The notes beneath the pieces were generated by a model. The model searched no databases. It saw nothing but the letters and a program-made list of their open reading frames with translations, and was not told the origin of the DNA. Shown here piece after piece: positions 17,741 through 46,054 of a stretch of 64,000 bases of DNA. A program made the position numbers and the translations under genes. Each line of letters starts with the position of its first letter. Position 1 is the first letter of the stretch. This stretch comes from Alphaproteobacteria bacterium (lineage in GTDB: Bacteria; Pseudomonadota; Alphaproteobacteria; Rs-D84), in assembly GCA_017472065.1 (NCBI GenBank), contig JAFURB010000010.1, positions 270 through 64,269 on the forward strand, given 5' to 3'.

Positions 17741-17810
17741 TTGATTTTTATGTCGTTTTATGATATAATATTCTGTATCAACACCGCCGTATGTGGCGGT
17801 GTTTTTTTTT
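17741..17810 (+). promoter_or_regulatory. Sigma70-type promoter immediately followed by an intrinsic terminator
   Basis: TTGATT(17741-46)-17 nt-TGATATAAT(-10 at 17764-69), then ACACCGCC-N6-GGCGGTGT plus T9 (17781-17810), 44 nt before the next ATG. Confidence 0.5.
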
Positions 17811-17853
17811 ACAGCTAATAAATCTTTTATATAAAACCTTAAGGAAATATATT

Positions 17854-18432
17854 ATGTCAAAAATTCTGCAAGTGCGGCGCGGTTCAACCGATGCCAATAA
17901 TAATTTTACCGGGATGCCGGGGGAACTGTCATTTGATACAGATAAAAAAACATTACGCGTACATGATGGCGAAACACTGGGCGGATTTGAATTGTTACGC
18001 ACAGACCAAAATTCATCCAGCGGTGATGGCACATTTGATATAACAAGTGTATCAGATGAATTCTGGGCCGAAACCATTGCGCGTTTCGCACCGGCACCAT
18101 TTACAATCCTGACCAGTCCCCAGATGAAGGTAAAAAGCACTGTTCCATCAACCGAGTGTATTTTCGATACCGTCAGCAAAGAACCAGCCTTTGTTCGTGT
18201 AATGCTGATATGCCAATCACCGGATGCCGGATATGCAATCGGCGACACGGTTTATGCATTTGGTATCGGCAATCGCACAAACCCAACACCAAACATATGG
18301 ACCGACGATAACGGCGTGCATGTACAATTAATGATTGGTAATGAACAATTCTGGGTCAGTCACAAAGACACCGGCACACAAACAAACATTGTGCCAGAAA
18401 ACTGGCGTTTATTATTCCGAGTTTACTGTTGA
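17854..18432 (+). CDS. Phage tail-fibre N-terminal-domain protein (Mtd_N / hyaluronidase-like motif)
   Basis: MSKILQVRRGSTDANNNFTGMPGELSFDTDKKTLRVHDGETLGG matches the (I/L)Q(L/V)RRG...GEL..DTD...L(K/R)(I/V)GDG opening of many phage fibre/tropism proteins. RBS AAGGAAA. Confidence 0.6.
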   Translation: MSKILQVRRGSTDANNNFTGMPGELSFDTDKKTLRVHDGETLGGFELLRTDQNSSSGDGTFDITSVSDEFWAETIARFAPAPFTILTSPQMKVKSTVPSTECIFDTVSKEPAFVRVMLICQSPDAGYAIGDTVYAFGIGNRTNPTPNIWTDDNGVHVQLMIGNEQFWVSHKDTGTQTNIVPENWRLLFRVYC

Positions 18433-20004: not shown

Positions 20005-20150
20005 CCTTTTTTTTACATAAAAACCGCCATATAAAAGGCGGTTGGAGGCTCAAAACTATTAACAGTAATAGCGTGCTTATTTAGATATATCGCAACCCTC
20101 CAACCTGTGTTGGAGTTTTCTGTTAGAGGTTTTGAGTCCTCGCACCGGAT
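20005..20150 (-). ncRNA. Structured leader/sRNA, copy 1 of a two-member family
   Basis: TTGAAT-17-TATAAT promoter (20184-20156, minus), ~145-nt transcript ending in AACCGCC-N8-GGCGGTT plus U-run. Homologous to 23671..23885 with compensatory changes in helices. Confidence 0.5.
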
Positions 20151-20226: not shown

Positions 20227-21522
20227 TTATTTAATCAAATCGCCGGCCTTGATATATTCGGGGTCGTTTTTTTTCAGGTACTTTTGCGCGCGACGCGCAT
20301 ATTCAACCGATTTATCCGTATCACCACGCATTGCATGATATTCCGCCATCGCCCATGCGTGACGACCAGAATCCGCATCACCATAGCATCGTGCCAAAAC
20401 CCAATACGCCAGTGGAGTCGGTTCCGTCAACACAACATGTTTAGATAACTCAATCGCGCGCGATATATCGCCGGGCTTTTTCCGTTCTGATAAAACCAAT
20501 GCCAGGGCTGTTTCAATCTGGGGCGCGTTATCAATCAGTGACAATGATTTTTCATATGCATGAACACTGTCATCATAATGACCAAACTGATATTCAATAT
20601 CACCCAGCAATTCATAGAAATATCCATTATTTGGATTGCGCGATATTAATGTTTCAACCCCCATGCGCGCACCATCCAGATTTCCCCCACGCATGTTCGC
20701 AATTGCGCGTGCATACAGGGCGGAATCTGATTTATCCGTGTACGGATATTTTGTTAATACCGTCTTTGCATCATCCAAATATCCAATCAGTTTTGCACGC
20801 ACCAATTCATATCGCGCATCGCGCGTGGTGGTATTTGGCGCACGGTAATCGGGCGCATGTTCGGCAATATATTCGCGTGCGTTCTTTAACCGTTCACGGG
20901 TCAGTGGATGATTAATTCGATTTGGATTAATTGTGTTTTCTAATTCGCCGGTTAAATCGTTCATCTGTTCAAAGACAGTTATAAATCCATTTGGATTCTG
21001 GCCAGATTGTATCATTAAATCAATCCCCAGATTATCTGCAATGCGTTCTTCGTCACGGGAAAACGCCAACATCGACTGGGTTGCGACACCCGATGATCCG
21101 GCCAGGACCCCTGCCCCCAGTGATGGATTACCACCGGCGACCATTAATCCGATTCCCAATGCCTGAATCAACATGGTGCGTTTCATTTCGGCATCCATGC
21201 GCGCAGATAATTGTGCCATGTGACCACCAATCGTATGTCCCAATTCATGCGCCACAACCGCAACCAGTGCATCGGGATTCTTTATTTGTTTCAACAGACC
21301 GGTGTAAATAAACACATCTTCGCCACCACGGACAAACGCATTAAAATCATCATCACTGACAATATTTATATTTAACCGGCCACCTGGGATATTGGCCGCC
21401 GTCCCCAGCGGTGCAACCAGTTCTGATAGAAAATGTTCTGTTTCTGTGTCATTAATCAATGTCGCACAAAATGACGGCATCGTTATAAAAAGCGATAACA
21501 AAAGCACACAAAACCTACGCAC
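20227..21522 (-). CDS. M48-family periplasmic metalloprotease with TPR-like C-terminus (BepA/YfgC-like)
   Basis: Signal peptide, HELGHTIGGH zinc motif, helical-repeat C-terminal half. Confidence 0.85.
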   Translation of the reverse strand: MRRFCVLLLSLFITMPSFCATLINDTETEHFLSELVAPLGTAANIPGGRLNINIVSDDDFNAFVRGGEDVFIYTGLLKQIKNPDALVAVVAHELGHTIGGHMAQLSARMDAEMKRTMLIQALGIGLMVAGGNPSLGAGVLAGSSGVATQSMLAFSRDEERIADNLGIDLMIQSGQNPNGFITVFEQMNDLTGELENTINPNRINHPLTRERLKNAREYIAEHAPDYRAPNTTTRDARYELVRAKLIGYLDDAKTVLTKYPYTDKSDSALYARAIANMRGGNLDGARMGVETLISRNPNNGYFYELLGDIEYQFGHYDDSVHAYEKSLSLIDNAPQIETALALVLSERKKPGDISRAIELSKHVVLTEPTPLAYWVLARCYGDADSGRHAWAMAEYHAMRGDTDKSVEYARRAQKYLKKNDPEYIKAGDLIK

Positions 21523-23572
21523 CTTGGATTACCCCACGATTAAATATAAACATTAAATCACGCGTCCAATCATCTGCATCATTATCACGCGCCGCATTTG
21601 CCGCCAATTTGAACAGGTCACGATGTTCACGATAATCTACAAAATGATATTGTATCCAACCACTTTGTCGGGTACCCATTAATTCACCAACACCACGCAT
21701 CATTAAATCTTGTTCGGCAATTATAAAACCATCATCTGTTTCACAAAGGACATCTAAACGCTTTATTCCATCATCAGACAGGTTATTCCCAAATACTAAC
21801 ACGCAATACGATTGCGTGTTGCCGCGACCGACACGCCCACGCAACTGATGTAATGCCGCCAAACCAAATCGTTCTGCGTTTTCAATAACGATAATAGATG
21901 CACGTGGGACATCAATGCCAACCTCTATGACCGTGGTTGCAACCAACATCCGCATATTAGAATTATCGTCGGCAAATTCTTCCATGACGGCGTCACGTTG
22001 TTTTTTGTCCATTTGACCATGAACCAGCCCCGCCGTCGGGAAATATTCGCACAGCATTTTATGCCGTTCAACAACCGCCGTCATGTTTGTGTCAACATTT
22101 TCAGATTCTTCGACCAGGGGACACACCCAGAAAACCTTGGCCCCGGTGGAAATTTGTGTTTGCAGGCGCGCAACCAATTCATTTATTCGCATCATTGGCA
22201 GTTTTGTCGTCTTAATTGGTTTGCGACCGGCAGGCTTTTCATTAATAATCGAAACATCCATGTCGCCATAGATTGTCATCGATAAAGTTCGCGGAATCGG
22301 TGTCGCAGACAATGCCAACAGGTCTGGATTATTCCCTTTTTGTCGCAGGGATTCGCGCTGGGCCACGCCAAATCGATGCTGTTCATCAATAATGACCAAT
22401 CCCAAATCCCGATATTCAACATCCGCAGAAAACAGTGCATGCGTTCCAACGACCAGGCGCGTACGCCCAGATTTTAATGATATTAATTTTTCACGGCGTG
22501 CAACACCTTTGTCACGGCCGGTTAAAATATCACACACAATGCCGATTTTATCGCACATAGGTTTTAGTTTTGCATAATGTTGCTGGGCCAATGTGTCGGT
22601 TGGTGCCAGTAATGCACTGCACGCACCTGTTTCAGCCATTTTTATCGCCGCCGCCAGCGCAACAATCGTTTTACCAGATCCAACATCACCCTGGACCAGG
22701 CGCATCATCGGTACCGGCTTTTGCAGGTCACTAAAAATCTCGTCACAGGTGCGTTGTTGTGCGCCCGTCATTTCAAATGGCAGGGTCGCATAAAATTTAT
22801 CCATTAAATCGTATTTTTTCGGGCGTACAACGCGACGATTCCGGATGTCGGCACGGTTGCGGCGACTGATTACAATTGCCGATTGGTGGGCAAATAATTC
22901 ACAATATGCCAACTTGGCCATATATGTGGCATTTGGCATCAAATCATCGGCAGATGTGGGAAAATGAACATGTTGCATCGCATCAAAAAATTCCAGAATG
23001 CGTTCGTCGGTTTCAAACCGCAATTTATCAGGCAATATTTCAAATATTCTGTCGCGAACATTGGCGAAAACTTTCTGGGTTAATCCTTCGCCTGCGGGAT
23101 AGATTGCCTGAATCGATGGAATCTTGGATGCGTTTTGCATTTCTTCGATAAAGTCAGGATGACTTATCGTTGGGCGCGCGCCACGTTCCAGTTTGCCAGA
23201 AATCATACGCCACGCACCAATTGGTAATTTTTTCAACCAATAATCCAGATAGTTTACATTAAAGAACTGAATCACGACCGTGTTGCCCATTTTGTCGTTA
23301 CATAAAATCTGGGTTGGGCGACGACGACCACGGAAAAAGCCACCTGATTTATGACTTTTGATCAATAACGGAATCGTTATAACATCACCAGGGGTCACAT
23401 CCATAACATTATCTGTTATATCGCGCGCACGAACATATGCCGGACGATGTAACAAGAAATCCAGCACACGGCGCCCACCCAACACATCATCAAAGCGTGC
23501 CGCCAAGACCGGCCCCACCCCCTTGATGAATTGCAGGTCTGTATTCAAAAAATCAATCAGTTCATGTTTCAT
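21515..23572 (-). CDS. recG: ATP-dependent DNA helicase RecG
   Basis: Walker A GDVGSGKT, IIDEQHRFG box, N-terminal wedge region, 685 aa. Confidence 0.95.
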   Translation of the reverse strand: MKHELIDFLNTDLQFIKGVGPVLAARFDDVLGGRRVLDFLLHRPAYVRARDITDNVMDVTPGDVITIPLLIKSHKSGGFFRGRRRPTQILCNDKMGNTVVIQFFNVNYLDYWLKKLPIGAWRMISGKLERGARPTISHPDFIEEMQNASKIPSIQAIYPAGEGLTQKVFANVRDRIFEILPDKLRFETDERILEFFDAMQHVHFPTSADDLMPNATYMAKLAYCELFAHQSAIVISRRNRADIRNRRVVRPKKYDLMDKFYATLPFEMTGAQQRTCDEIFSDLQKPVPMMRLVQGDVGSGKTIVALAAAIKMAETGACSALLAPTDTLAQQHYAKLKPMCDKIGIVCDILTGRDKGVARREKLISLKSGRTRLVVGTHALFSADVEYRDLGLVIIDEQHRFGVAQRESLRQKGNNPDLLALSATPIPRTLSMTIYGDMDVSIINEKPAGRKPIKTTKLPMMRINELVARLQTQISTGAKVFWVCPLVEESENVDTNMTAVVERHKMLCEYFPTAGLVHGQMDKKQRDAVMEEFADDNSNMRMLVATTVIEVGIDVPRASIIVIENAERFGLAALHQLRGRVGRGNTQSYCVLVFGNNLSDDGIKRLDVLCETDDGFIIAEQDLMMRGVGELMGTRQSGWIQYHFVDYREHRDLFKLAANAARDNDADDWTRDLMFIFNRGVIQGA

Positions 23573-23670: not shown

Positions 23671-23885
23671 GTTATGGTGAATTGCCATAATGGGGTGTCA
23701 AGACCCGTACAATACGCGTTCGAAATAACGGTACAACATGCATGTAGCGTGCCGGGTGTGTTTCGAACGAAAAAACTCCTGATATTTATCGTCAGGAGGG
23801 TTGCGAATATATTGAATAAGCACACAATTCGTATTGATTGTCTTGAACCTCCTGACCACCTGTAAAAGCGGTGGTTTTGTTTTTC
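23671..23885 (+). ncRNA. Structured leader/sRNA, copy 2 of the family
   Basis: TTGAAC(23636-41)-17-TATAAT(23659-64), ~215-nt transcript ending in ACCACC-N9-GGTGGT plus U-run, 22 nt before the ATG at 23908. The 3' ~110 nt aligns to copy 1. Confidence 0.5.
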
Positions 23886-23907: not shown

Positions 23908-24312
23908 ATGAAAAAGATATACATATGCGGATTAGTTAGCACAGTATTAACATTTTGCATAAATCCGTCGCATAAAACATATGCGGCAGATTTCACATCA
24001 ATGAAATGCGTCGCACAAATTGCATCTAATAAAACCAATTGGAATGCAAAATGTGGTAAAATATCCGTCAGTGGAAAATCAACATGTGTAAACATGCCTG
24101 GGGACAAGCCGTATGCGACAACAGGAATATTTCAATTAAGCAATAATAATGACAGGCTGGATTGTTGGTGCAAAATGACATCCCCGAACGAGTCTGCGTG
24201 GATATTTTTAGGTGCATATCCAAGCGCATCAGATTGTGATAATAATTGCATGGATAACTGTGCAGTTCACATGCAATTATCCCAAGAATTTCGCAAAGCA
24301 TTTACACAATAA
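23908..24312 (+). CDS. Secreted cysteine-rich hypothetical protein (134 aa)
   Basis: Signal-peptide-like N-terminus MKKIYICGLVSTVLTFCINPSHKTYA, multiple Cys in the mature part, RBS CAGGAG. Confidence 0.55.
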   Translation: MKKIYICGLVSTVLTFCINPSHKTYAADFTSMKCVAQIASNKTNWNAKCGKISVSGKSTCVNMPGDKPYATTGIFQLSNNNDRLDCWCKMTSPNESAWIFLGAYPSASDCDNNCMDNCAVHMQLSQEFRKAFTQ

Positions 24313-24459
24313 ACAACTGCACAGACACTATAATTATACCAGTTTGCAGATTGTGCATAGCCGTTGTACCATTTGACACGGCTCTAATCAAAAACGCATG
24401 TGTGTGCTTGATTTAGGCCCGTTACACAATTAGATGTTAGCGAAAATTGAAACAGCAAG

Positions 24460-24957
24460 TTAATACTTTACTTCATTTAATATTTTCCAAAATTCAGGAA
24501 CGTTCTTTGGTGCCATTCCGTTCAGCAGTTGCACCGATGCGATTGAGCCAAATGGCGCATAAAAACCATCATCAAAATCATAATATTTTCGTATGCAGTT
24601 ATTTATTGCAACATCTAAATCCGCCATTGACATGTGAATCATCAAATCCCATACCCGTTCCAGTATCTCGTCATACTTGTAATCACTGAATCTGTAATTA
24701 TCCCAGAAATAATACAATATTTGTTTTGCCTGTGCACGACTCAAATCTTTGATATTTTCTGGGAAATTAAAACGTGGATGTGCCACCCGATACATATCCA
24801 GTTTTTCTTGATTTACGGCATATGCATTTATAAGTGCGGGGTTAATTTTTGTTTCGCCCCCCGCATATTCTATAACCTCATCAATCCAAGCGTCGATTGG
24901 ATGCCCCCATGAAGGTGAATGCATCAATAAAAACAATAAAATTATTATCTTTTTCAT
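24460..24957 (-). CDS. Secreted GH108-like (N-acetylmuramidase-like) domain protein
   Basis: Signal peptide MKKIIILLFLLMHSPSWG, then IEYAGGE...HPRFNFPENIKDLSRAQAKQILY, paralogous to the C-terminal domain of the upstream gene. The start could instead be ATG 24993, which overlaps the upstream stop by 4 nt. Confidence 0.55.
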   Translation of the reverse strand: MKKIIILLFLLMHSPSWGHPIDAWIDEVIEYAGGETKINPALINAYAVNQEKLDMYRVAHPRFNFPENIKDLSRAQAKQILYYFWDNYRFSDYKYDEILERVWDLMIHMSMADLDVAINNCIRKYYDFDDGFYAPFGSIASVQLLNGMAPKNVPEFWKILNEVKY

Positions 24958-24989
24958 AAGGGCATTATGACAAATCAGATAAGAAAAAA

Positions 24990-25847
24990 TCAATATCTAT
25001 TTGTACGATTTGTCCATCCACGACCATATTTATCCCAATCGGATAAAGTGCGAAGATATTCGATTCTATTTTCTTTTAGGGTATTCATAAAATCATTTAC
25101 TTTATATACTGGTATATCGTTTAGTGCGTTTATCGTATTTTTGCCCATTTTTCCGTCCACTACCAAATTTTCACTCATTGAATCATTCAGTGTTTTTTGA
25201 ACCATCTTGATAACATTTCTAAAATTACTCATAACCCCCATGTCAAATATAGAATTAGATATTCTTGGGATTTTTATTTCGCCTATTTTACGTTCGTCAT
25301 AATAATCTTCTTTATATATTTGTTTTGCGTGCCCGCGTTCTATATCTGCAACTTTTTTCGGAAAATTAAAGTTTGGATGGTCTGCATTGTATTTGTCCAG
25401 TGTCGGTTGGGTTATTCCAAAATTAGTTGGTTGGTCTATCAAATCAGGATTGTCAACATATCCCGCTTCTTCGTCCAATGTCTTTTCCAAAGAATACTCT
25501 TTTATCTGATTTTTTACCAGCTCATCACTATCATCTAATTCTATTTCTTCTATCCAACAACGACAATTTTTATGATGCGGATTTTTTGGAATCTCTTCAA
25601 TGTGTTCATAAATTTTATTTGCAAAACTCAGACATATATCACGTGTTTTATCATCAATCACCGTATGCCACCGCCATGCGGTTCTGATTGTGATATTATG
25701 CCCCGTTGCGTCTGTACGACTGTTGCCATATTTGTTTTCAAAATAATCGTGTACCTGTTTGGCGACAGTAGCGTGGTTGGGATTATTACTGTTTAAATAC
25801 GCGTCGCTGTGCATAAGGGTTAGTATATTATTTGATAATTTATTCAT
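24990..25847 (-). CDS. Phage MuF/SPP1-gp7-like head-morphogenesis domain fused to GH108 muramidase + PG_binding_3-like domain
   Basis: VIDDKTRDICLSFANKIY...PHHKNCRCWIEEI (MuF-type H.NCRC motif), followed by EEAGYVDNP..TNFGITQ..(GH108-like) and GKMGKNTINALN...GRGWTNR (PG-binding-like). Start set to ATG 25847 after AAAGGA. Confidence 0.7.
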   Translation of the reverse strand: MNKLSNNILTLMHSDAYLNSNNPNHATVAKQVHDYFENKYGNSRTDATGHNITIRTAWRWHTVIDDKTRDICLSFANKIYEHIEEIPKNPHHKNCRCWIEEIELDDSDELVKNQIKEYSLEKTLDEEAGYVDNPDLIDQPTNFGITQPTLDKYNADHPNFNFPKKVADIERGHAKQIYKEDYYDERKIGEIKIPRISNSIFDMGVMSNFRNVIKMVQKTLNDSMSENLVVDGKMGKNTINALNDIPVYKVNDFMNTLKENRIEYLRTLSDWDKYGRGWTNRTNRY

Positions 25848-25849
25848 TT

Positions 25850-25958
25850 TTAATCCTTTTGGTATAAAAAACACCCGCGGTGGCGGGGATAAAAAAAGAC
25901 GACAAAATGCCGTCTGTCTGATGTGATGTATTATATCATATATTCCCGTTTTTTTCAA
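25850..25958 (-). promoter_or_regulatory. Sigma70-type promoter followed by two terminator-like hairpins upstream of the MuF-GH108 gene
   Basis: Minus strand: TTGAAA(25958-53)-17-TGATATAAT(-10 at 25935-30), then AGACG-N9-CGTCT+T7 and CCCGC-CACC-GCGGG+TGT6, then AAAGGA RBS and ATG 25847. Confidence 0.45.
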
Positions 25959-25984
25959 TATAAAACGCCCCAGACGGGGTGTTT

Positions 25985-26485
25985 TTATTTTGTTTTTTGT
26001 GCAATTTTTTCAACCGTCAATCTAAAACCATTTAATTCAAACGAGCGACCCGCCATATTTTGTAGGTTTAATCTGATTGTGACATCTTGATAACGCCCCA
26101 ATAAATCATGCAAAAATGTATAATTTTCTATCATAAGATGCAACTTGCTTGATATTTCACGAGAAATATAAAAATCGTGTGCATAATTAATAGAAACAAG
26201 AACCCATGGCGCGACATAACCATCATTAAACGCCACGCGCGCCCAAAGATTATCCCCCTTTTCAGCGACAGGATTTCCAGTTTTATAGAATTCCCCAGTT
26301 GTTTTAGATGTCAAAAAATGCATTTCTTGGATATTTGGATAGTGGTTTTGAAGATTTTGGAAATTTTTGTGTATAGATTCTGGGTAACCTATGGTCGCGC
26401 CACGATATGTTGTTGCCGGCTTGCCGCCGATAAAAATCCCGTTCGTGTTTATTGTAATATATTCTGTTTTTGGCATATCTGGCAT
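25985..26485 (-). CDS. Hypothetical protein (166 aa)
   Basis: The ORF track entry begins inside tRNA-His; start trimmed to ATG 26485 (MPDMPKTEY...). No family recognised. Confidence 0.45.
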   Translation of the reverse strand: MPDMPKTEYITINTNGIFIGGKPATTYRGATIGYPESIHKNFQNLQNHYPNIQEMHFLTSKTTGEFYKTGNPVAEKGDNLWARVAFNDGYVAPWVLVSINYAHDFYISREISSKLHLMIENYTFLHDLLGRYQDVTIRLNLQNMAGRSFELNGFRLTVEKIAQKTK

Positions 26486-26565: not shown

Positions 26566-26643
26566 TGGGGCGGATAACCGGACTCGAACCGGCGACATTT
26601 GGTACCACAAACCAACGCTCTAACCAACTGAGCTATATCCGCC
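26566..26643 (-). tRNA. tRNA-His (anticodon GUG), G-1 and CCA encoded
   Basis: The reverse complement GGCGGATATAGCTCAGTTGGTTAGAGCGTTGGTTTGTGGTACCAAATGTCGCCGGTTCGAGTCCGGTTATCCGCCCCA has anticodon loop TTGTGGT and an extra 5' G pairing with C73. Confidence 0.9.
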
Positions 26644-26657
26644 ATACTGAATCTTTA

Positions 26658-26733
26658 TGGTGGAGCTGATCGGACTCGAACCGACGACCCCTTGCATGCC
26701 ATGCAAGTGCTCTACCAACTGAGCTACAACCCC
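26658..26733 (-). tRNA. tRNA-Ala (anticodon GGC)
   Basis: The reverse complement GGGGTTGTAGCTCAGTTGGTAGAGCACTTGCATGGCATGCAAGGGGTCGTCGGTTCGAGTCCGATCAGCTCCACCA has a G3:U70 pair and anticodon loop ATGGCAT. Confidence 0.9.
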
Positions 26734-26815
26734 ATGCGGAATCATATTCTATATTTCTTCTTGCCAAATGTCAAATCAATTTGCTAATCTTTTTTTGTAT
26801 TTTAAGGAGTTATAT

Positions 26816-27376
26816 ATGGATTATCCAATTTTGAAGTCAGAAGTTGAACAAAAAACAGCACAAACACTGGATGTTTTGCGTAATGAATATGCCGGTTTGC
26901 GTACAGGACGCGCATCGGTTCATTTGCTGGATGCAATCCGTGTGCCGGTTTATGGCGCAGAAATGCCAATCAACCAGGTCGCAACTGTTTCAACACCAGA
27001 CAACCAGACTTTATCTGTGACCGTTTGGGATATTACAAATGCGCCGGCGGTTGAAAAGGCAATTCGTGATTCTGGACTGGGGCTGAACCCGATGACCGCG
27101 GGCGGTGTAATTCGCCTGAACATGCCACCGTTGACCGAAGAACGCCGTCGTGAACTGGTCAAGGTTGCCGGCAAATACGCCGAAGAAGCCAAGATTTCTA
27201 TGCGTAATATTCGCCAAGATGCAATGGGCAAAATCAAACGCGCCGTTACAGATAAAGAAATTTCCGAAGACGACCAACGCAAATTCGAAGACGATATTCA
27301 AAAGGTCTTTGATAAACGCGGGGCCGAAGTTGATGCCATCGCCAAAGAAAAAGAAGCAGATATCATGGCGGTCTAA
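26816..27376 (+). CDS. frr: Ribosome recycling factor
   Basis: Start at ATG 26816 after AAGGAG. ..LRNEYAGLRTGRASVHLLD..VYG....INQVATVS.P.. is a typical Frr sequence. Confidence 0.95.
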   Translation: MDYPILKSEVEQKTAQTLDVLRNEYAGLRTGRASVHLLDAIRVPVYGAEMPINQVATVSTPDNQTLSVTVWDITNAPAVEKAIRDSGLGLNPMTAGGVIRLNMPPLTEERRRELVKVAGKYAEEAKISMRNIRQDAMGKIKRAVTDKEISEDDQRKFEDDIQKVFDKRGAEVDAIAKEKEADIMAV

Positions 27377-35619: not shown

Positions 35620-36849
35620 CTATACCCCCATCAAACTTTCAGATGCAACCATCTGGGCAATCGGGGCAATGTATTTTAATTCTGCATCACCATGCAATGT
35701 AATTGTGTCAATCACACCACGGCGTGATAATATTTGCAATCCGCGTTCGCACAATGGGCGTATAAATTCATGCAGCAATCGCCCATATGTCGCACCCAAT
35801 ATACGCATCATATCGCTGTTTCGGGCCATGATTTCTGTGGCGGTCATTTCTTTTTCACTTAATAGCCCCAACCGGTCTGCCAACAATGCGTGCCGAATCC
35901 GTTCGCGCAAATCTTTTAATATAATTTGCGATACATCAAAATTCGCGCCACTGGTCAATGGGGTCAGGCCCGATGATCCAACAGCCTTGGGGATAATTGC
36001 CCCGGGGGTCAGGTTTATGTTATTCAGGTTTATTACACCGTCATCGTCCGCCATCCAGATGCCCGATACCGCAATTGTCGCATTTTTCAAGACCAGTTCC
36101 ACAACCTTGTTCGCGGTTTTTATGTCTGGTAACGCACGCAAGACCGGTCCACGACCATATAATTCCCCCGATGCCAACGACCAGCGGAATATTAAGTATG
36201 GATTTGTTTCAAATGTGCCGGTGGCCACAATATTATTTTCAATATCACCACCAACATCCAGCCATGCTGTAAATTCAGTACCGACCAGACTTTGGACCAG
36301 TTTTATTGGTGTATCTGCATCTTGTTTAATCATATCGCGGATATTTGATGGTGGGGTCCATGTGGGATATTTTTCCATAACATCGCGTGCCGACATAGAT
36401 GTTGTATGAAATACTGCGTTTGGTAAAATCGCAATATCTGCCATCGGGATTGCTGTGAACGAAAATGCAGATGATGCACCAATTGGATTTTCAGCCATAA
36501 ACAAACACGCGGTCCCCAGAACAACTAAATCCATATAACACTGGTGAACAGTAGTATAGAAATTAGAATCGTTCAAATTCGCACGCAATGCCGCCGTTGC
36601 CGCACATGCATCGGGTGATGCATCACTTTCTGGCACCAGGGTCAGCCATAATGATTCTGGTGGGGTCAGTAATGTGTACAGCGATGCCGCCAGGTTATCA
36701 ACGGCATCGGTTGCGGTTGCATCATACAATGTCGCCAATTCATCATCGGCCGATGGCATTGTATATCTGCGCGCCGCGTCCCAACGATTTAGCCATGGGG
36801 CACGCATATCTAATGCACGTTTATATAACTGATAAAGGTTTGATTGCAT
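35620..36849 (-). CDS. Phage portal (head-to-tail connector) protein
   Basis: 409 aa directly downstream of the terminase. N-terminus MQSNLYQLYKRALDMRAPWLNRWDAARRY... is typical of podoviral connector proteins. Confidence 0.7.
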   Translation of the reverse strand: MQSNLYQLYKRALDMRAPWLNRWDAARRYTMPSADDELATLYDATATDAVDNLAASLYTLLTPPESLWLTLVPESDASPDACAATAALRANLNDSNFYTTVHQCYMDLVVLGTACLFMAENPIGASSAFSFTAIPMADIAILPNAVFHTTSMSARDVMEKYPTWTPPSNIRDMIKQDADTPIKLVQSLVGTEFTAWLDVGGDIENNIVATGTFETNPYLIFRWSLASGELYGRGPVLRALPDIKTANKVVELVLKNATIAVSGIWMADDDGVINLNNINLTPGAIIPKAVGSSGLTPLTSGANFDVSQIILKDLRERIRHALLADRLGLLSEKEMTATEIMARNSDMMRILGATYGRLLHEFIRPLCERGLQILSRRGVIDTITLHGDAELKYIAPIAQMVASESLMGV

Positions 36850-36879: not shown

Positions 36880-37746
36880 TTAGACTGAAAACTGTGTGTT
36901 TGCATAAAATGTCTGGGGGGCGCGGCCCATGGGGCGGATTACAATTGGCGTGGTGGAAATGGCGCCAGCCAATGCATCCAATCCATCGTCATGCCCCACC
37001 CCACCAATTGGTGACCACCCCAGCATTTCCGAAATTAGCGGTGTTTGCCGCACACGCATATGGGCATACAAATGCCCAGATGTCAGCAACGGTTCAATTG
37101 CATCCAGGATTCTGTCGGCCTTGTTACGACTGTTCGTGATTTTGTTGACATAGATATTTTCGCCATGATGTTTTGCCACATCAGACATGATTTCAGGCAA
37201 CGCATTGCCAATTCCGTTTGTTTCAATCGTTATACGGCGTATTGTGTAACGACGCATAAAATCCAGAACCATTTGACATTGGATGTTTAATGGGTGCGTT
37301 TCTGTATCTGGGACATGCATGTACGTGACATCATGGATGAACACATTGTGATTCTTGTCATCACGGTATATCAGGACACAGACACTGTCGTCTGATTTGT
37401 GACGGCCACTGGACGGGTCCCAATATATGGACGCCCCCGATATTTGATTCGAACCCAATCGCGCCGCGTGTATATCCAAGGTGTCTTCATAAAAGTGAAT
37501 TTGCCCCGGATCCAGCCGAATTCGTTCCGGTGGGACAAATTCCAACATCATTTGTGATGAAAAATGACGCGGTCCCACAATTTGCCGCATCTGATTTATC
37601 TTTTCAGTCGGGAAAAGTTCGGGCCACGCAGGCACACCATTGGCATCAAGTATCGGAATTTTCAATAATTTATATCCTGATAAAAAAGGCATTGAAAAAG
37701 CATTTTTTTCATATACCATTGGCGTTAAGGAAAAGGATTTTGACAT
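36880..37746 (-). pseudogene. Terminase large subunit, C-terminal (nuclease) fragment, T7 gp19-like
   Basis: ..SGYKLLKIPIL...WPELFP..., FSSQMMLEFVP and HDDGLDALAGAI align with T7 gp19 RGYTTIIWPALYP, FTLQFMLNP and HDDRLDALALGI. It has no ATPase domain of its own. The upstream part of track ORF 36880..37821 is antisense to dnaB. Confidence 0.75.
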
Positions 37747-39301
37747 GGATTTTACCCCCAAGACTTTGCCAACTAATTTAGAAGCAGAACAGGCAGTGTT
37801 GGCCGCCGTATTAATGAACAATCGTGCGTTGGAACGCGTGTCTGAATTCTTAAAAGCCGAACACTTTTATCACCCGGCACACCAGGGAATCTATAAACTG
37901 GCCGAACGCCAGTTTGCCGCCGGGATTCCGTTTGATATTATCACTGCAAAAAACTATCTGGACCAACAAGGGGTCTTGGAATCCGTTGGGGGCGTTGATT
38001 ACCTGACAAAATTGTCCGGCGCGGGTGCGACGGTTGTTAATGTCGAACAACATGGACGCATCGTTTATGAAAATGCCCAGCGGCGACAACTGATTAACCT
38101 GGCCCAGGATATTATGGATAATGCATTTGTCGAAGACTTGGACAATCCAGTTAATCGCCAAATCGAAATCGCAGAACAAAAGTTATTCGATATGGCAACA
38201 ACCGGCGATTCCGAACGCGATGTCATTTCAATTGCAACCGCGCTACAGGCCGCCCTGAGGGAAGCAGAAACCGCATACAAGGCCGACGGACAGTTATCTG
38301 GGTTGACGACAGGACTGACGGCGTTGGACAAATCAATTAGTGGTTTGCACCATTCTGATTTGATTATTATCGCGGGTCGTCCGGCGATGGGTAAAACAAC
38401 ACTGGCCATGAATATCGCATTTAATGCCGCAAATGCAATTCATTATGGGATGGCAAATAAAAACTATAAAGGCGTGGTGGTATTTTTCAGTTTGGAAATG
38501 TCACATTCACAATTGGCGGCACGTGTTCTGTCATCACAATCCAAGGTGCCGGCATCTGCGATGCGTGAAGGTAACCTGACGGATGAAGATATGCTGAAAA
38601 TGACACAATATGCCGATGCAATCAGCAAAATCCCGTTATGCATCGATGATACGCCGGGCATGTCGGTTCCAATGATGCGTACACGCGCAAGACGATTAGC
38701 ACGCAAATACGGTGGAATTGCGTTGATTGTGGTGGACTATCTGCAATTGATGACATCGCCGGGTGGCAAGCGCAGCGACAACCGCGTTCAAGAAATTTCC
38801 GAAATCACGCGTGGATTAAAAATGCTGGCCAAGGAATTGGATGTTCCGGTTATTGCACTGTCCCAGTTGTCGCGTAGTGTTGAACAGCGCGATGATAAAC
38901 GCCCCCAGTTGGCCGATCTGCGTGAATCTGGATCAATTGAACAAGACGCCGACATTGTTATGTTCACGTATCGTGAAGAATACTATCTGGCAAACAGAAA
39001 TCCATCCGAAAGAATTTCAAACACAACAAATTCATCCATGGTCGAATCATGGCAAAAACGATATGAACAATCCCGTGGCAAGGCCGATATTATCATTGGT
39101 AAAAACCGTCATGGTCGCCCTGAAACAGTACGCACTGCGTTCTTTGGCGATTACAGTTTGTTCGATAATTTACCGGATGAATTTGACACACGGGGCGAAA
39201 ATGTTTCCGCACAACCAAGTGCCAGCATACCACTGGACGGGTCTGAATTTGCACCAACACCAATTGACATTGATGCAATTCCAGACGATATGCCGTTGTG
39301 A
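37745..39301 (+). CDS. dnaB: Replicative DNA helicase DnaB (with acidic C-terminal tail)
   Basis: LPTNLEAEQAVLAAVL, Walker A GRPAMGKTT, LSQLSRSVEQR, RESGSIEQDADIV. Start set to ATG 37745 after AAGGAAAAGG. Confidence 0.92.
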   Translation: MDFTPKTLPTNLEAEQAVLAAVLMNNRALERVSEFLKAEHFYHPAHQGIYKLAERQFAAGIPFDIITAKNYLDQQGVLESVGGVDYLTKLSGAGATVVNVEQHGRIVYENAQRRQLINLAQDIMDNAFVEDLDNPVNRQIEIAEQKLFDMATTGDSERDVISIATALQAALREAETAYKADGQLSGLTTGLTALDKSISGLHHSDLIIIAGRPAMGKTTLAMNIAFNAANAIHYGMANKNYKGVVVFFSLEMSHSQLAARVLSSQSKVPASAMREGNLTDEDMLKMTQYADAISKIPLCIDDTPGMSVPMMRTRARRLARKYGGIALIVVDYLQLMTSPGGKRSDNRVQEISEITRGLKMLAKELDVPVIALSQLSRSVEQRDDKRPQLADLRESGSIEQDADIVMFTYREEYYLANRNPSERISNTTNSSMVESWQKRYEQSRGKADIIIGKNRHGRPETVRTAFFGDYSLFDNLPDEFDTRGENVSAQPSASIPLDGSEFAPTPIDIDAIPDDMPL

Positions 39302-41095: not shown

Positions 41096-41731
41096 TTATG
41101 CGGTGCGATATATCGTATCCATCGTATGTGGTGTCCCAATATAAATCATTGCCCCATTTGGCGACAGAATAAAATCCAGTTCACGCAATCGTTCACGCAA
41201 ATTTTCCCGTTTTTGTGCGGTGTTTGATGTATTTGGAACCTCGACATCGTCACAGATTATTAAATCTGCACGCATACCAGTTATGTTGCCATGGATACCC
41301 TGGCAAATCACAGATGGTTCACGAATTCCAATTGGACGATTTATGGTTATTCGGTCGGATGCCCAATCGCGACGCGATGACGGAATCAGGTCCGCACACA
41401 ATGGATGATTTTCCAGAATATGACGAATATGCATAACCATACGCGATGCCAGTGTCGTATGCGCCGACAGAATCAATATTCGGGTCTGGGGGCATAACAG
41501 CAATGTACACGCAGCAAAAATTCCAACAACTGTTGATTTGCCAGAATGTCGAAATGCCATCAACAGTCCACGATGTGTATCATCACACAGAACCCCGACC
41601 AGAAATTCCATAATCTGGCGGTGATGGGTGGGCGTTTCATACCCCAGGACACGATTCCATGTATCCAGAAAGTTATAATAGGCCGTAATCATCACTGATG
41701 TTACCAGGGGTGGTGGATGTGATAAATCCAT
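41096..41731 (-). pseudogene. Terminase large subunit, N-terminal (ATPase) fragment, T7 gp19-like
   Basis: Walker A FRHSGKST, Walker B DLIICDDVE, ends ..IYIGTPHTMDTIYRTA* where T7 gp19 reads [20 protein letters not shown]. The continuation lies 3.3 kb away at 36880..37746. Confidence 0.8.
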
Positions 41732-42230
41732 AGTCGTTGATCAGATTTGGCCGCACATTATCCAACACCATTATCAAATTTCGATACAGCCCCAGCACAC
41801 CACCACCGGTCATTTTATCTTGGATAAGACTGTTTGTGTATTCCAAGAAATCAATCACATTTGTATGTGTGTTGCGCCACTGTTCAATATCTACATTTGG
41901 CGCATGCAGGTCTTTTAGGGCCTCAAGCAAGAAATTAAAGTCCGAATTCAGGTGTTCTGGGTCTATTTTTGCGGTCGGTTGGTAATCAACAACACGGTTT
42001 AGTGCAACCTGGCGATAGATATCAATACGACTGGCAGATGCGGGCGCATTGGCAAACACAACACGGCCACCGTCAAATGTGGTGTTTTCAATTACAGAAT
42101 ATTCATCTGTACCCAACACATGTTCATCGATTGCAACACGGATATCAGCCGCCTGGAAAAACGGAAAAGAAAATTCATATTCCGTTGTTGTGCCGTCTGA
42201 AATATAAGATACTTTATACATATTATTCAC
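41673..42230 (-). CDS. Tail-fibre N-terminal (tail-docking) domain only, T7 gp17-like
   Basis: YKVSYISDGTTTEYEFSFPFF...IRVAID...RIDIYRQVALNRVVDYQPTAKIDPEHLNSDFNFLLEALKDL follows the T7 gp17 N-domain pattern. It is 185 aa, so there is no distal receptor-binding part. Confidence 0.6.
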   Translation of the reverse strand: MNNMYKVSYISDGTTTEYEFSFPFFQAADIRVAIDEHVLGTDEYSVIENTTFDGGRVVFANAPASASRIDIYRQVALNRVVDYQPTAKIDPEHLNSDFNFLLEALKDLHAPNVDIEQWRNTHTNVIDFLEYTNSLIQDKMTGGGVLGLYRNLIMVLDNVRPNLINDYGFITSTTPGNISDDYGLL

Positions 42231-42630: not shown

Positions 42631-44352
42631 TTAAATGTTATACCAACCAGATACACAGACCGATAAAATCGTGGCTGGGTACGGCTGGTTGCCATGAATT
42701 GTCCAATATGGCGCAACACAGTTATGCGATGTCCCCAAAACATTGACATGTACATCGCCTGAAAATCCGGGCGCATCATCTGAATATATTTCATTTGCCA
42801 TATTGATACGCATCCCATTGATGTATATGGATTTTGTATCCAATATGCGGGCGGACACCTTTCTTATTCGCAGGCGCGATGCATTGTGTGCCGATGCACG
42901 CATTGGCAGTGATGATGCACGGAACGCGAAATCATATTTATCTGTGTCACGCATCGCGTCGGCCGAAAATTTTTCCAGATTATATGTGTCGCCACGATTG
43001 GTGACAACATATGTAATGCCATTAACAACAACCACAGATTTGAACGCACCATATGTTTTGTATGCACCCCAGGCACTTATCCCCAATGCTGAATTTTGAT
43101 TCAAGACGGCCATATTTCCGTCTGCCATAACGATGTACAATCGATGCAAAGAATCATTATATGCAATGTCAATTGGCAATGTCATCAAATGTTTGGAAAA
43201 AGAGCATAAATCCAGTGCGCTGTAGTTTTCACCCAATTCATCCAGTGTTAATTCGCGTATGTCGCGCAGATTCTTGGATATGAATACGGTGCTGTCTTCT
43301 ATCTTTTGTGGGGCAAGATATCGTGATGCACAACTGCCCACGGATGTGTGTTGTTTTATATCAACCACAGATGGTGTCAGGGGCTTGCTGGATATCGCCC
43401 ATTCGCCAACAGATGTTAAAATTTGCAGATTATCACTGCTGACGACGGTGCAAATTTGCTGGCGCTGTTGTGAAAGCAGGGTTATAAAAATTGCTTCGTC
43501 ATCAAGTCCGGTTCCAACATCAAAGTTTTTGTGATTGCCGACCTTGGACATCCAAACACCGCCCGGATATGAACGCGAACCACCAAATACCAATCTGTCT
43601 TGGTGAAAAGTAATACTGATTGGCCAGCCACGGGCCGGACTGAACGCAGATTCAAACCAATCGGCGATTGGGGCGCTGGGTAATGTACAGGCATCGTTGA
43701 TGTATGCGATGACCTCGGTCGGGCTGATGTATTCTTCGATAAGCCATTGATGATTTAACAATACAAATCGTGTTCCAACATATTGCGTGGTCCAGAAATC
43801 TGAACTGGTTGTGAATTTGGCATAATTATTGCCACGATCGCTGGATGACACAGAAATCTTGATATCATTTGTATCTTCGTATCGCATGAACGGCATATTA
43901 ACCGACATGTCTGTGTCATTTCGGGCAAACATAAAGTTCGACAAACTAAAACCATCTGATGTTTTTTCAAGCACCTGGGGGCAATGGTCTGGATGAACAA
44001 ATATCATTGTGCCAAAACGCTGGGCGTATTGCAGTTTTGATAAATCATCCGCCGACCATGGCGATACCAGGTCTGAAACAAACACGTTGTCTGCATAAAT
44101 CAATATATGACCCGATGTCATTACAAGGATATAGTTTTCTTGTTCAGACACCGAAAAACCAACCAATCGCGCATCACCAGTTAATGAGGCAATATGTGCC
44201 AGACCACATCGGCGCGACAATCCACCACCTGGCAAAACATCCATGTTTTCCAAGCACGACAATCCATTTATATCATCGCGCGCATAGAATTCTGGTGATA
44301 CTTCGCCCGATGCAAATGAGTTCTGTGTTTTTATAAAATTTGCCATTATCAT
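42631..44352 (-). CDS. Tail tubular protein B (T7 gp12-like)
   Basis: N-terminus ..FASGEVSPEFYARDDINGLSCLENMDVLPGGGLSRRCGL matches the F.aGE.SP...gR.D...Y......N......G....RpG opening of gp12-type nozzle proteins. Position after gp11-like gene. Confidence 0.72.
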   Translation of the reverse strand: MIMANFIKTQNSFASGEVSPEFYARDDINGLSCLENMDVLPGGGLSRRCGLAHIASLTGDARLVGFSVSEQENYILVMTSGHILIYADNVFVSDLVSPWSADDLSKLQYAQRFGTMIFVHPDHCPQVLEKTSDGFSLSNFMFARNDTDMSVNMPFMRYEDTNDIKISVSSSDRGNNYAKFTTSSDFWTTQYVGTRFVLLNHQWLIEEYISPTEVIAYINDACTLPSAPIADWFESAFSPARGWPISITFHQDRLVFGGSRSYPGGVWMSKVGNHKNFDVGTGLDDEAIFITLLSQQRQQICTVVSSDNLQILTSVGEWAISSKPLTPSVVDIKQHTSVGSCASRYLAPQKIEDSTVFISKNLRDIRELTLDELGENYSALDLCSFSKHLMTLPIDIAYNDSLHRLYIVMADGNMAVLNQNSALGISAWGAYKTYGAFKSVVVVNGITYVVTNRGDTYNLEKFSADAMRDTDKYDFAFRASSLPMRASAHNASRLRIRKVSARILDTKSIYINGMRINMANEIYSDDAPGFSGDVHVNVLGTSHNCVAPYWTIHGNQPYPATILSVCVSGWYNI

Positions 44353-44358
44353 CCCCTA

Positions 44359-44877
44359 TTAAAACCGAGAACTAATTAGTGAAAAGTTTTCTATGTGATT
44401 ACCGCCACCGATGGAACTGTCAATGAATTTGGCATTTTGCAGTTCTGTTTCGTACAGTGCGGCCAACATTCTGAATACTGTTTGATCGCCTGATAACGGG
44501 ACACAAAATTCCAATGCCAGTTTGGTCGCAACCAATGATGAAAAATAACTGGGGTATTGTTCGGTGCCAACACGCACACATGCCGTGATTGTTATTGAAT
44601 CAGATGCGGCAATAATATTGTTGCCAATAATTTGACCACCTGATTTCAAAACACGCAAAACATCACTGGGGATTGTGAAATTCCCATCGGCATTTACATT
44701 TAAGGTTATTTGACGCGTGGCAAAACGCCATGGATGTGATGCAATCAGGGCATCTGTTATCGGGTCAAATAATGTACGCGCCAATTGTGATGATACACAA
44801 TCATCACTTAAAGACTGAATTGGTTCTTCGCCCAGTTTAAGCAATGCCATTGAACATAAATCTATTTTTGTAAGCAT
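44359..44877 (-). CDS. Tail tubular protein A / adaptor (T7 gp11-like)
   Basis: MLTKIDLCSMALLKLGEEPIQSLSDD...LFDPITDALIASHPWRFA, a typical gp11-type N-terminus. 172 aa. Confidence 0.72.
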   Translation of the reverse strand: MLTKIDLCSMALLKLGEEPIQSLSDDCVSSQLARTLFDPITDALIASHPWRFATRQITLNVNADGNFTIPSDVLRVLKSGGQIIGNNIIAASDSITITACVRVGTEQYPSYFSSLVATKLALEFCVPLSGDQTVFRMLAALYETELQNAKFIDSSIGGGNHIENFSLISSRF

Positions 44878-45226: not shown

Positions 45227-46054
45227 TTATGCAGTTGTCGCATCCGCACATTTGACGCGTACAATACCATCGTTATCAATCAAGACGGCACCCTGGGACA
45301 TACTGTTGCTGATAAAGTGCGCGGCACGTTCACCATGCCATGAAATGTCTGTCTTGACTTCTTGGCCACAGGCGTGTCCAACGCTGGACGCGTGATAGAT
45401 AAAGCAGTCACGATTTGTATCCGTAGATGGTAAACCGTTGTGCAGAACCCATGTGATGCCCAGCCATTTCTTGGCTTCGAAACCACTGACCAATGGGGTG
45501 GAATCACCAACATATTCAGACGACACGAATTCGTCCATCGACAATAATTCGTTCCACTGGTGTACACCAATTACGGCAAAACGACGACCATCATCTGGAA
45601 CATCGTTTGTGTTCAAAACTTCGACCGCAGACAAAATCAAATCTTTGGTCAGGCCGGTGGAATAATCACCAACAGACAGTGTTGATGCGTTCATTGCATC
45701 GATGATTAATTCATCTGTCTTGCGCCCCAGTGCATATGCACCCGCAGACGCAACAACACGGCGTTCATCAATGTTTACCTTTAATTCATCCAATGCATCA
45801 ACCCAATCACCTGCATAATAATCTGTTAACATACATTCAACAGGTTCATGATTCAGATTCATTACTGGAACAATACCGTGGCGTGATTTTGTGCTGGCGG
45901 TGCCACGACCAACCTTTTGAAATGTCGTGGATGCACCAACGACACCTGATTTACTGCGAACGGTTGAACGCAGTTTTGTACCCATCTGTTGATAGGCCAA
46001 ATGAACATCGGCTTCGAATTGTTTTACGAAAACCTGATCAATTGAAACGGACAT
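45227..46054 (-). CDS. Major capsid protein (T7 gp10-like, HK97 fold inferred)
   Basis: VKQFEADVHLAYQQMGTKLRSTVRSKSGVVGASTTFQKVGRGTA parallels T7 gp10 KVFGGEVLTAFARTSVTTSRHMVRSISSGKSAQFPVLGRTQA. Position after the scaffold gene. Confidence 0.72.
   Translation of the reverse strand: MSVSIDQVFVKQFEADVHLAYQQMGTKLRSTVRSKSGVVGASTTFQKVGRGTASTKSRHGIVPVMNLNHEPVECMLTDYYAGDWVDALDELKVNIDERRVVASAGAYALGRKTDELIIDAMNASTLSVGDYSTGLTKDLILSAVEVLNTNDVPDDGRRFAVIGVHQWNELLSMDEFVSSEYVGDSTPLVSGFEAKKWLGITWVLHNGLPSTDTNRDCFIYHASSVGHACGQEVKTDISWHGERAAHFISNSMSQGAVLIDNDGIVRVKCADATTA

Follow-up and report, generated by a model that had tools for sequence, protein, structure and literature searches.

A MuF-type muramidase gene and its exported, active-site-damaged paralog in an alphaproteobacterial chromosome: a candidate capsid-borne effector with a periplasmic neutraliser

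Introduction

What is a protein that looks half like a phage head component and half like a wall-cleaving enzyme doing in a bacterial chromosome, and why should a relative of the enzymatic half be encoded directly behind it with an export signal? These questions are raised by two adjacent genes, P1 and P2, in a 64,000-nucleotide (nt) stretch of the alphaproteobacterial contig JAFURB010000010.1 (hereafter the window, whose coordinates are used throughout unless another locus is named). A preliminary description of this DNA, made from the sequence alone, had proposed two alternatives for the pair, namely a capsid-packaged muralytic ejection protein replacing a missing gp16-type function, or a peptidoglycan-targeting effector with a periplasmic decoy or immunity protein. 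The gene pair is real, lies on the minus strand where it had been placed, and contains every motif that had been quoted. Both ideas are kept here, but the evidence suits a combination of them instead of an either/or choice. We tentatively propose that P1 is a head-packaged muramidase effector and that P2 is a periplasmic neutraliser derived from the effector itself, a reading that we put forward as a working explanation held at a little under an even chance.

The setting differs from the temperate phage that had been assumed. The window is bacterial chromosome, not phage, with recG, tRNA-Ala/His, frr, uppS, cdsA, rseP, and bamA surrounding P1 and P2, and no integrase gene was found near the pair. 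The only phage genes in the window are a T7-like set that is present family-wide and is vertically inherited, as described below.

P1 looks like an intact muramidase without a signal peptide

Pfam searches of the P1 product, which has no signal peptide, returned Glyco_hydro_108 (PF05838; expect value (E) 4.6e-16, 59.6 bits against a cut-off of 21.2) and PG_binding_3 (PF09374; E 4.7e-6, 27.1 bits against a cut-off of 24.6), bearing out the GH108-like segment and the PG_binding_3-like tail that had been recognised by eye. A sequence search of the PDB aligned the C-terminal 170 residues to Brucella SagA (7dnp, E 5.1e-11), NMB1012, Sen1395, and TtsA, with the PG_binding_3 part aligned to the C-domain of 7dnp and 2ikb. 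The AlphaFold model of P1 has a predicted local distance difference test score (pLDDT) of 87.2 and, in VIA comparisons, matches SagA 7dnp with Z 17.2 and a root-mean-square deviation (rmsd) of 2.4 over 154 residues, followed by 2ikb (Z 14.7) and 6v3z (Z 13.5), and more distantly by the lysozyme domain of VgrG3 (4noo, 4nso; Z 7.0) and by pesticin (4epf; Z 5.0). The best match in PHROG is named 'endolysin' (phrog_315, E 2.6e-27).

SagA is described as having the T4-lysozyme-like catalytic residues Glu17, Asp26, and Thr31 (PMC8334348). P1 E127 stands in alignment with the catalytic E17 of SagA, in a motif that reads EAGY here and EGGY in most relatives, and across 58 aligned sequences E127, D138, and T141 hardly vary. 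Between the Glu and the Asp lie 10 residues in P1 as opposed to 8 in SagA, and the Asp assignment is therefore inferred. Given the domain scores, the retention of E127, D138, and T141, and the SagA-like fold, P1 looks like an intact GH108 muramidase with a two-domain fold and predicted activity. Median pairwise ratios of nonsynonymous to synonymous substitution rates (dN/dS) are 0.13 for P1 (31/36 pairs usable) and 0.148 for P2 (29/36 pairs usable); both genes are under purifying selection.

P2 is a predicted exported pseudo-enzyme related to P1

The start of P2 had been suggested to be an ATG at 24993, giving a 4-nt overlap with P1, but the codon at 24993 is TTG. The most likely start is ATG 24957, whose M1 is invariant among 50 aligned homologs, and the two genes are consequently separated by a spacer of 32 nt (24958-24989) and do not overlap. 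The N-terminus that follows has a Lys-Lys n-region and a hydrophobic core, as judged from the sequence and the alignment, and the signal region ends in A-V-A followed by D in most homologs.

That the remainder of P2 is a paralog of the GH108 segment of P1 is supported by BLASTP (E 3e-11, 24/73 identical) and by profile-profile alignment with hhalign (probability 97.5%, E 7.9e-12, 138 columns). The homology covers P1 residues 114-259, while the final ~26 residues of P1, which form the last PG_binding_3 helices, have no counterpart in P2. The earlier statement that P2 lacks the PG-binding tail thus holds for those last ~26 residues and fails for what precedes them. Taken alone, P2 is hard to recognise: it scores 15.6 bits against PF05838 (cut-off 21.2), no Pfam family was matched above cut-off, and a PDB sequence search gave nothing meaningful (best E 0.095, to unrelated proteins). 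The best of five structural models has a pLDDT of 82.0, with low values in the signal-peptide helix, and the remaining four lie at 62.8-66.1. With that model, the top 10 PDB rows returned by Foldseek are all GH108 structures, at template modelling (TM) scores of ~0.5 and E of 0.04-0.4.

The catalytic region of P2 had been called divergent, and it proves to be disrupted. In the hhalign alignment, Ala32 occupies the position of the catalytic Glu, the conserved Glu30 (E30; ≥90% conserved) lies off that position by two residues on its N-terminal side, D138-Q139-P140 are deleted, and Asn44 stands at the Thr position. The BLASTP alternative places Asn44 opposite the Asp and leaves the Thr without a counterpart. 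By either alignment the P2 family is without two of the three catalytic residues. The family has 97 database members, all of them named no further than 'hypothetical', and an alignment of 50 sequences holds 34 invariant columns. Judged on these alignments, P2 is a conserved pseudo-enzyme with a predicted export signal, and a paralog of the GH108/PG_binding_3 part of P1.

A role for P2 as a holin or spanin was considered and rejected, as P2 has a single N-terminal signal and a globular GH108-like fold, and this copy has no lipobox. A complex prediction for P1 residues 112-285 with mature P2, run with alignments, returned 'no answer' (score 0.02, mark 0.32) and speaks neither for nor against binding.

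P2 follows P1 across the family and outlives it

Orthologs were sought in 151 genomes of one bacterial family, covering 18 genera and including 108 genomes of the same genus; being related, these genomes are not independent samples. Full-length, 285-amino-acid (aa) P1 orthologs are present in 15 of the 151, and P2 lies directly downstream in 15/15. P2 orthologs (E<1e-40) are present in 22. At least 13 genomes have both open reading frames (ORFs) intact, at 55-93% identity, and among the 13 intact P1 genes of the 285-aa type in the family genomes none is without P2.

Five genomes have an intact P2 without an intact P1. In G136 (locus L073) and G086 (L075), tRNA-Glu is followed at once by what is left of the P1 C-terminus and then by P2; in G140 (L074) a lone P2 follows tRNA-Glu; in G128 a 201-aa gene and its lipoprotein gene occupy the place of P1, with P3 (the gene upstream of P1 in the window) and P2 both kept; and in G120 a stop cuts P1 and leaves P2 intact. 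P2 is broken in G107, and broken copies of the pair occur in G116, G120, and G107. The linkage of P1 and P2 is strict, and P2 outlives P1. The occurrence of orphan P2 genes with no intact 285-aa P1 found alone is the asymmetry expected of immunity. The tRNA-His locus of G076 holds a MuF-Tlde1 gene with a membrane partner, then a MuF-less GH108 gene, then P2, and the last two resemble a displaced toxin tip with its immunity gene. The flanks of the pair vary, in that it occurs in either orientation between frr and recG, with P3 either before P1 or after P2.

One N-terminal module carries several wall-cleaving domains

The N-terminal half of P1 had been identified with the MuF head-morphogenesis family. 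The motif is there, with a core of the form W-x-W-H ... C-x2-C ... P-H-H-x-N-C-R-C-W; the Pfam match to Phage_Mu_F (PF04233) is confined to the C-terminal core and falls short of the cut-off (E 2.8e-5, 25.2 bits against 29.6; profile positions 61-110/112). Relatives with the same module do pass it, at 34.4 bits (P0060) and 32.5 bits (a G140 gene), again over the last ~55 positions only. PHROG matches of the P1 module are to minor head protein and head morphogenesis families and are weak (E 1.6e-4 to 3.4e-6). Genes with the module were found in 65/151 genomes with a profile of the module itself and in 69/151 with PF04233, and in the window's own genome P1 is the sole match. The 285-aa form and a long form of ~400 aa share both ends of the module, the long form having ~95 extra residues in the middle. 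The fusion junction lies directly after the C-R-C-W motif, and what follows it can be replaced: in P0123 and P0124 a GH24 lysozyme stands behind the same module, at 61-64% identity.

A survey of such fusions, of the kind the preliminary description had called for, fetched 61 loci and yielded 59 module-bearing genes from 58 of them; L016, L062, and L071 were dropped for having no ORF of ≥150 aa that held the MuF core. C-terminal domain types were named by Pfam after clustering, and neighbouring genes were clustered as DS groups. GH108 is the most frequent type (25 of the 59 genes), followed by Tlde1/YkuD (17), GH24 (11), a second Phage_lysozyme/pesticin-like type (4), and Peptidase_M23 (1), with one gene too short to be classed and without a neighbour. 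All five groups are peptidoglycan-cleaving.

The neighbours differ from type to type. The 14 short-form GH108 genes have P2 in 14/14 cases (13 by ORF clustering, the 14th by tblastn), and the 11 long-form genes have secreted proteins, all convergent, of the groups DS4 (5), DS5 (4), DS2 (1), and DS18 (1). The Tlde1/YkuD genes are accompanied by small membrane proteins of DS0 (13), DS8 (3), and DS16 (1); the GH24 genes by a lipoprotein (4) or a convergent secreted protein (6), with none for one gene at a contig end; and the second lysozyme/pesticin-like type by a 334-aa lipoprotein in 4/4 cases. The single M23 gene lies at a contig end. DS2 is the only neighbour cluster common to two C-domain types, and none of the neighbour families could be given a Pfam name. 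The neighbour clusters thus track the C-domain type and are candidate immunity genes.

A sixth arrangement recurs, in which a 201-aa protein joins a virion-type wall hydrolase domain (matching phrog_873 and phrog_7182) to a C-terminal MuF core (41 bits, above the Pfam cut-off) and is followed by a lipoprotein; 201-aa frames with the MuF match occur in at least nine genomes. Separately, an A-rich run divides the MuF-Tlde1 gene of G140 (L026 9606-10761) into two frames that overlap, which suggests a frameshift, a pseudogene, or an assembly error.

A T7-like head gene set is inherited throughout the family

The phage genes of the window are arranged in the T7-like order scaffold, capsid, tail tubular A, tail tubular B, fibre N-part, terminase, and portal (Table 1). 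The portal gene is present in 135/151 family genomes, in 105/108 of the same genus and in 17/18 genera, as an intact single copy at 55-91% identity, and the capsid gene, likewise single-copy and intact, in 137/151, 106/108, and 18/18, respectively. Genome sizes in the family are 0.5-1.1 Mb. The head gene set is vertically inherited under constraint and is no recent prophage, and it may encode a domesticated particle of podovirus type. The T7-like set of the window has no internal-core genes, only a 115-aa ORF standing at their place, in agreement with the earlier remark that a gp16-type function is missing. A 136-aa endolysin-like ORF by the scaffold gene is a candidate lysis enzyme of the particle.

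The MuF module can be tied to this head by gene order elsewhere in the family. In three genomes of other genera (G035, G049, and G018), a MuF gene starts no more than ~55 nt after the portal gene, and in G063 a MuF gene lies 1 kb from it. The direct succession of portal and MuF gene in the former three links P1 to a phage-like head, and the portal is the presumed docking partner of the MuF-module proteins.

The large terminase of the window is in two pieces ~3.3 kb apart, the N-part corresponding to phrog_38 positions 272-460 and the C-part to 478-705. Between them lie dnaB, a helix-turn-helix gene, and a 218-aa ORF on the opposite strand, and the order in G063 is identical.

A proposed explanation and its consequences

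With a single N-terminal module, at least five wall-cleaving C-domains, exported neighbours belonging to each, and orphan copies of P2, the system follows an effector-immunity logic. P1 would be synthesised in the cytoplasm without an export signal and loaded, through its MuF module, into the T7-like head that the family encodes in its chromosomes. Ejected with the particle contents into the periplasm of a recipient, it would cut glycan strands there and so do the job of the missing T7 gp16-type core protein; the dose may decide whether it breaches the wall or acts as a killing effector. P2 would have been born by duplication of the GH108/PG_binding_3 part, with loss of the Asp/Thr part of the catalytic loop and of the last helices. 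Once exported into the periplasm, in the producer as in its kin, P2 could neutralise incoming enzymes of the P1 type, either by binding the enzyme or by occupying sites on the substrate, and thereby confer immunity or exclusion. The full picture with capsid delivery, that is, a tamed T7-like head serving this family of gut Alphaproteobacteria with tiny genomes as a protein-delivering particle with swappable MuF-tagged wall-destroying enzymes and periplasmic antidotes, is a bolder claim that we consider on the unlikely side.

If this full picture is true, the pair would be the first concrete, testable case of the long-predicted MuF capsid toxin route, and P2 would be an immunity protein made from its own target enzyme, a new path by which immunity genes could originate. 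All of the cargo types would act in the periplasm, and although the host is uncultured, toxicity, relief by the partner, and binding are thus accessible by standard periplasmic expression in E. coli. The conserved head set, the short carrier, the at least five cargo domains, and the type-specific exported partners can moreover all be compared within one lineage.

Several observations weigh against this explanation. Compared with G094, the GH108 part of P1 is 97-100% identical and P2 only 84%, and compared with G052, G088, G133, G071, and G145 the GH108 part is 62-71% identical and P2 82-89%. As the identities of the two parts do not co-vary, the GH108 domain appears to recombine without P2, which suits a broad-range neutraliser or an unrelated role more than an immunity protein closely matched to its toxin. 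Because the genomes counted are related, the association counts make the support look stronger than it is. In P1 the MuF match stays under the Pfam cut-off and spans no more than the final ~50 positions of the profile, and the BFVD and VIA rows for P1 are filled by the GH108 part and not by the N-module, the BFVD rows named 'minor capsid protein' being weak (probabilities 0.63, 0.21, and 0.09). Residue 69 of P1 (window 25640-25650) is Arg, whereas 48/50 relatives keep Cys at this first position of the C-x2-C motif, so the module may be impaired in the window copy; this is possibly a first step of decay, or else a tolerated change. With 65-69 of the 151 genomes holding them, MuF-module genes are not a fixed part of the particle. 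P1 in the window lies 9.8 kb from the portal gene. Among viral contigs, 23 loci matched the MuF core at 27-44% identity over ≤64 residues and none was a close relative of the N-module, which leaves the module without an example from the virion of a free phage. The neighbours of the long GH108 type and of 6/11 GH24 genes are convergent and not operonic, which is unusual for immunity genes. Lastly, the signal peptides in the survey were judged by eye and with a crude script that missed P2; the flags set by the script were not counted.

Alternative explanations

P1 could instead be a virion-internal penetration muramidase that replaces gp16, with P2 a periplasmic glycan-binding pseudo-enzyme that has its own role in the cell wall, adjoins P1 only through its origin in a tandem duplication, and does not act on P1. 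Every domain fused to the module cleaves peptidoglycan, as virion-associated hydrolases should, the internal-core genes are missing, and the failure of P2 to co-vary with the GH108 domain is readily accommodated; Iyer et al. 2017 argue in a similar vein that virion lysozyme domains aid breach of the wall. A simple leftover of duplication does not explain the intact P2 of the five genomes in which P1 is lost or truncated, nor does this account explain why the other C-domain types have exported or membrane neighbours of their own or why, of the genomes with head genes, only about one in two has the module. We consider it unlikely.

The name of the top PHROG match of P1, 'endolysin', raises the prospect of a lysis cassette, in which P1 would release particles or lyse the cell and P2 would be a periplasmic brake or timer. 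P1 is signal-less, as canonical endolysins are, and MuF-less GH108/PG_binding_3 genes of ~180 aa are common in the genus. Yet no holin-like gene adjoins P1, P2 has no membrane segment beyond its N-terminal signal, and a MuF module would serve no purpose in an endolysin; in other genes the module is joined to Tlde1 or M23, and the partners are membrane proteins or lipoproteins. The window also has its separate endolysin-like ORF by the scaffold gene, and the pair is found in only 15 of the 151 genomes as opposed to the nearly universal head genes. On this evidence a lysis cassette is quite improbable.

We give similarly little credence, if anything slightly less, to P1 being a housekeeping muramidase that assists secretion, as do Brucella SagA and Salmonella TtsA, by opening the wall to an envelope-spanning machine or to large exported proteins, with P2 a periplasmic modulator like PhiA. 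SagA is the nearest solved structure in both sequence and model comparisons (E 5.1e-11; Z 17.2), it has a proposed periplasmic inhibitor in PhiA (PMC8334348), and the window contains VirB8-like and T2SSE-type ATPase genes. Against this, neither SagA nor TtsA has a MuF module, PhiA is reported as an MliC/PliC beta-barrel unrelated to GH108 with no in vitro binding to SagA (PMC8334348), and P1-P2 varies between strains, occupies islets linked to tRNA genes, and can be exchanged for versions with Tlde1, GH24, or M23, none of which resembles a housekeeping assembly factor.

Finally, the low GC of the islet, the replaced Cys in the window copy, and the broken copies in three genomes might suggest a decaying, non-functional remnant of an old prophage lysis or head gene, which is highly improbable given that both ORFs are intact at 55-93% identity in at least 13 genomes, that median dN/dS is low for each (0.13 and 0.148), and that P1 keeps its catalytic residues.

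The islet and its surroundings

P1 and P2 lie in an islet bounded by recG and frr, downstream of tRNA-Ala and tRNA-His, which holds four small genes, P3, P1, P2, and P4 (Table 1). GC content is 0.358 at 24001-26000 and 0.41-0.48 over most of the window. If the hairpin between P3 and P1 is a terminator, P1-P2 would have a promoter of their own. P3 is 84-89% identical to its copies in other genomes, and its place relative to the pair shifts, with the order P1-P2-P3 in L007 and L009 and the order P3, another effector pair, then P2 in L072. P4 had no match in Pfam or PHROG. The islet lacks flanking direct repeats of the tRNA-His 3' end, and the junction repeat of the tRNA-Glu cassette array is not shared with it, the longest match being a terminator-like stretch of 27 nt at 92.6%.

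Table 1. Features of the P1-P2 islet and of the T7-like gene set in the window, with the 201-aa arrangement in two other loci
Feature	Position	Strand	Description
recG	21515-23572		islet boundary
P4	23908..24312	+	134 aa, Cys-rich, signal-like N-terminus, convergent to P2
P2	24460..24957	-	165 aa, predicted exported paralog of the P1 GH108/PG_binding_3 part
P2 signal peptide, residues 1-18	24904..24957	-	predicted by sequence and homolog alignment
P1	24990..25847	-	285 aa from ATG 25847; MuF-type N-module, GH108, PG_binding_3
P1 PG_binding_3 domain, residues ~213-282	25002..25211	-	PF09374
P1 GH108 catalytic domain, residues ~117-206	25230..25499	-	PF05838
P1 N-module, residues 1-116	25500..25847	-	N-terminal helices and MuF core
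GC hairpin and T-run between P3 and P1	25961..25980	-	likely terminator, by eye
P3	25985..26485	-	166 aa, conserved, no family; upstream of P1
tRNA-His	26566..26642	-	ARAGORN; islet starts at its 3' side
tRNA-Ala	26658-26733		ARAGORN; precedes tRNA-His
frr	26768-27376		islet boundary
Mtd_N tail-like gene	17791-18432		
Portal, T7-type	35620..36849	-	PF12236, E 7.1e-82
Large terminase, two ORFs	36880-37821 and 41096-41731	-	
Fibre N-part	41673-42230		
Tail tubular B	42631-44352		PHROG
Tail tubular A	44359-44877		PHROG
Major capsid	45227..46054	-	PF19821, E 2.3e-71; PHROG
Scaffold	46861-47517		PHROG
Endolysin-like 136-aa ORF by the scaffold gene	47720-48130	-	phrog_938, E 3.2e-8
201-aa protein and lipoprotein, L072	5568-6173 and 5087-5629		
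201-aa protein and lipoprotein, L030	11634-12239 and 12118-12720		

A hairpin repeat of ~70 nt lies at 23790-23860, with a GC-rich stem of 10 bp and an RNA fold z-score of -2.4. It has 10 matches in its own genome, five of them at ≥87% identity and one at 20044-20101, and it is the break point of many metagenome contigs. A contig of 502 nt from a metatranscriptome library, ~90% alike, spans the P1 stop into P2 (24786-25287); it is a weak hint that shows neither transcription nor a single transcript. No sequencing run held half of the words, all of the runs being contigs.

Comparison with known systems

The closest precedent for the P1 architecture is the class of MuF polymorphic toxins, which were predicted in 2012 (PMC3482391) and catalogued in 2017 (PMC5576092), with delivery by the phage head being a prediction in those sources. 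Zhang et al. 2012 (PMC3482391) described toxins fused to MuF in remnants of prophages that also contain terminase, portal, and capsid genes, and predicted packaging into the head. The likenesses to our system are an N-terminal MuF-type module with interchangeable C-terminal toxin domains, a small adjoining gene as candidate immunity, and the association with portal, terminase, and capsid genes, prophage remnants included. The described cargo is mostly cytosolic nucleases, metallopeptidases, ADP-ribosyltransferases, and RelA-like domains, whereas all of the cargo here is wall-targeting. The MuF passages of PMC3482391 do not mention a MuF-lysozyme fusion, and the main text of Jamet et al. 2017 (PMC5576092), whose supplements may list such domains, nowhere uses the words 'lysozyme', 'peptidoglycan', or 'muramidase'. 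Iyer et al. 2017 do note that some virion proteins contain lysozyme domains, and they describe MuF fused to a zeta-toxin-like kinase whose targets are wall precursors. The described toxins are also found mainly in temperate phages of Firmicutes, whereas the head genes here are vertically inherited in a bacterial family. Two further differences are that the partners here are exported, by prediction, and that the MuF part is a short derivative under the Pfam cut-off.

For the proposed function, the nearest analogy is the tail lysozyme gp5 of phage T4, which is blocked by the phage-encoded periplasmic protein Spackle, so that later-arriving particles are excluded. In both cases a virion lysozyme would meet, in the periplasm of the recipient, an inhibitor encoded by the same element. 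To our knowledge, Spackle is not a homolog of the gp5 lysozyme. A further difference is that gp5 is a tail protein and P1 a MuF-tagged protein of head type.

By enzyme family and by their two-domain clamp, SagA of Brucella abortus (7dnp) and TtsA of Salmonella (6v40) are the closest relatives of P1. SagA is also alike in having a proposed periplasmic modulator, PhiA, but PhiA, as an MliC/PliC beta-barrel that did not bind SagA in vitro, is unlike P2, a GH108 paralog (PMC8334348). SagA and TtsA have no MuF module and serve secretion in the cell that produces them.

Periplasmic wall-degrading effectors of lysozyme fold or L,D-transpeptidase fold that are paired with exported immunity proteins include VgrG3/TsiV3 and Tlde1/Tldi1 of type VI secretion and pesticin/Pim. 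The P1 model has a general lysozyme-fold resemblance to VgrG3 and pesticin, and a Tlde1 domain is found on the same N-module as that of P1. Delivery differs, being by VgrG/PAAR or by TonB-dependent import in those systems and, as proposed, by MuF here, and no type VI genes were noted in the annotation of the window. As far as we know, the immunity proteins of VgrG3, Tlde1, and pesticin are not paralogs of their effectors.

The particle itself invites two comparisons. In T7, gp16 is a large capsid-internal core protein with a lytic transglycosylase domain that is ejected on infection and has no MuF part; it shares with the proposed role of P1 a wall-cleaving domain carried inside the capsid. 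Gene transfer agents such as RcGTA are phage-derived particles made from vertically inherited chromosomal genes, and the alphaproteobacterial ones known to us are siphovirus-like (HK97-type), unlike the T7-like genes here, from which the particle of this family is predicted. The almost universal presence of T7-like head genes also suggests a particle resembling a gene transfer agent, of a type that was not described for Alphaproteobacteria in the literature searched; in the available text of PMC12306168, which mentions Enterousia, the word 'phage' is absent. The P1-P2 system would thus extend the predicted MuF toxin kind to wall-targeting cargo with exported partners.

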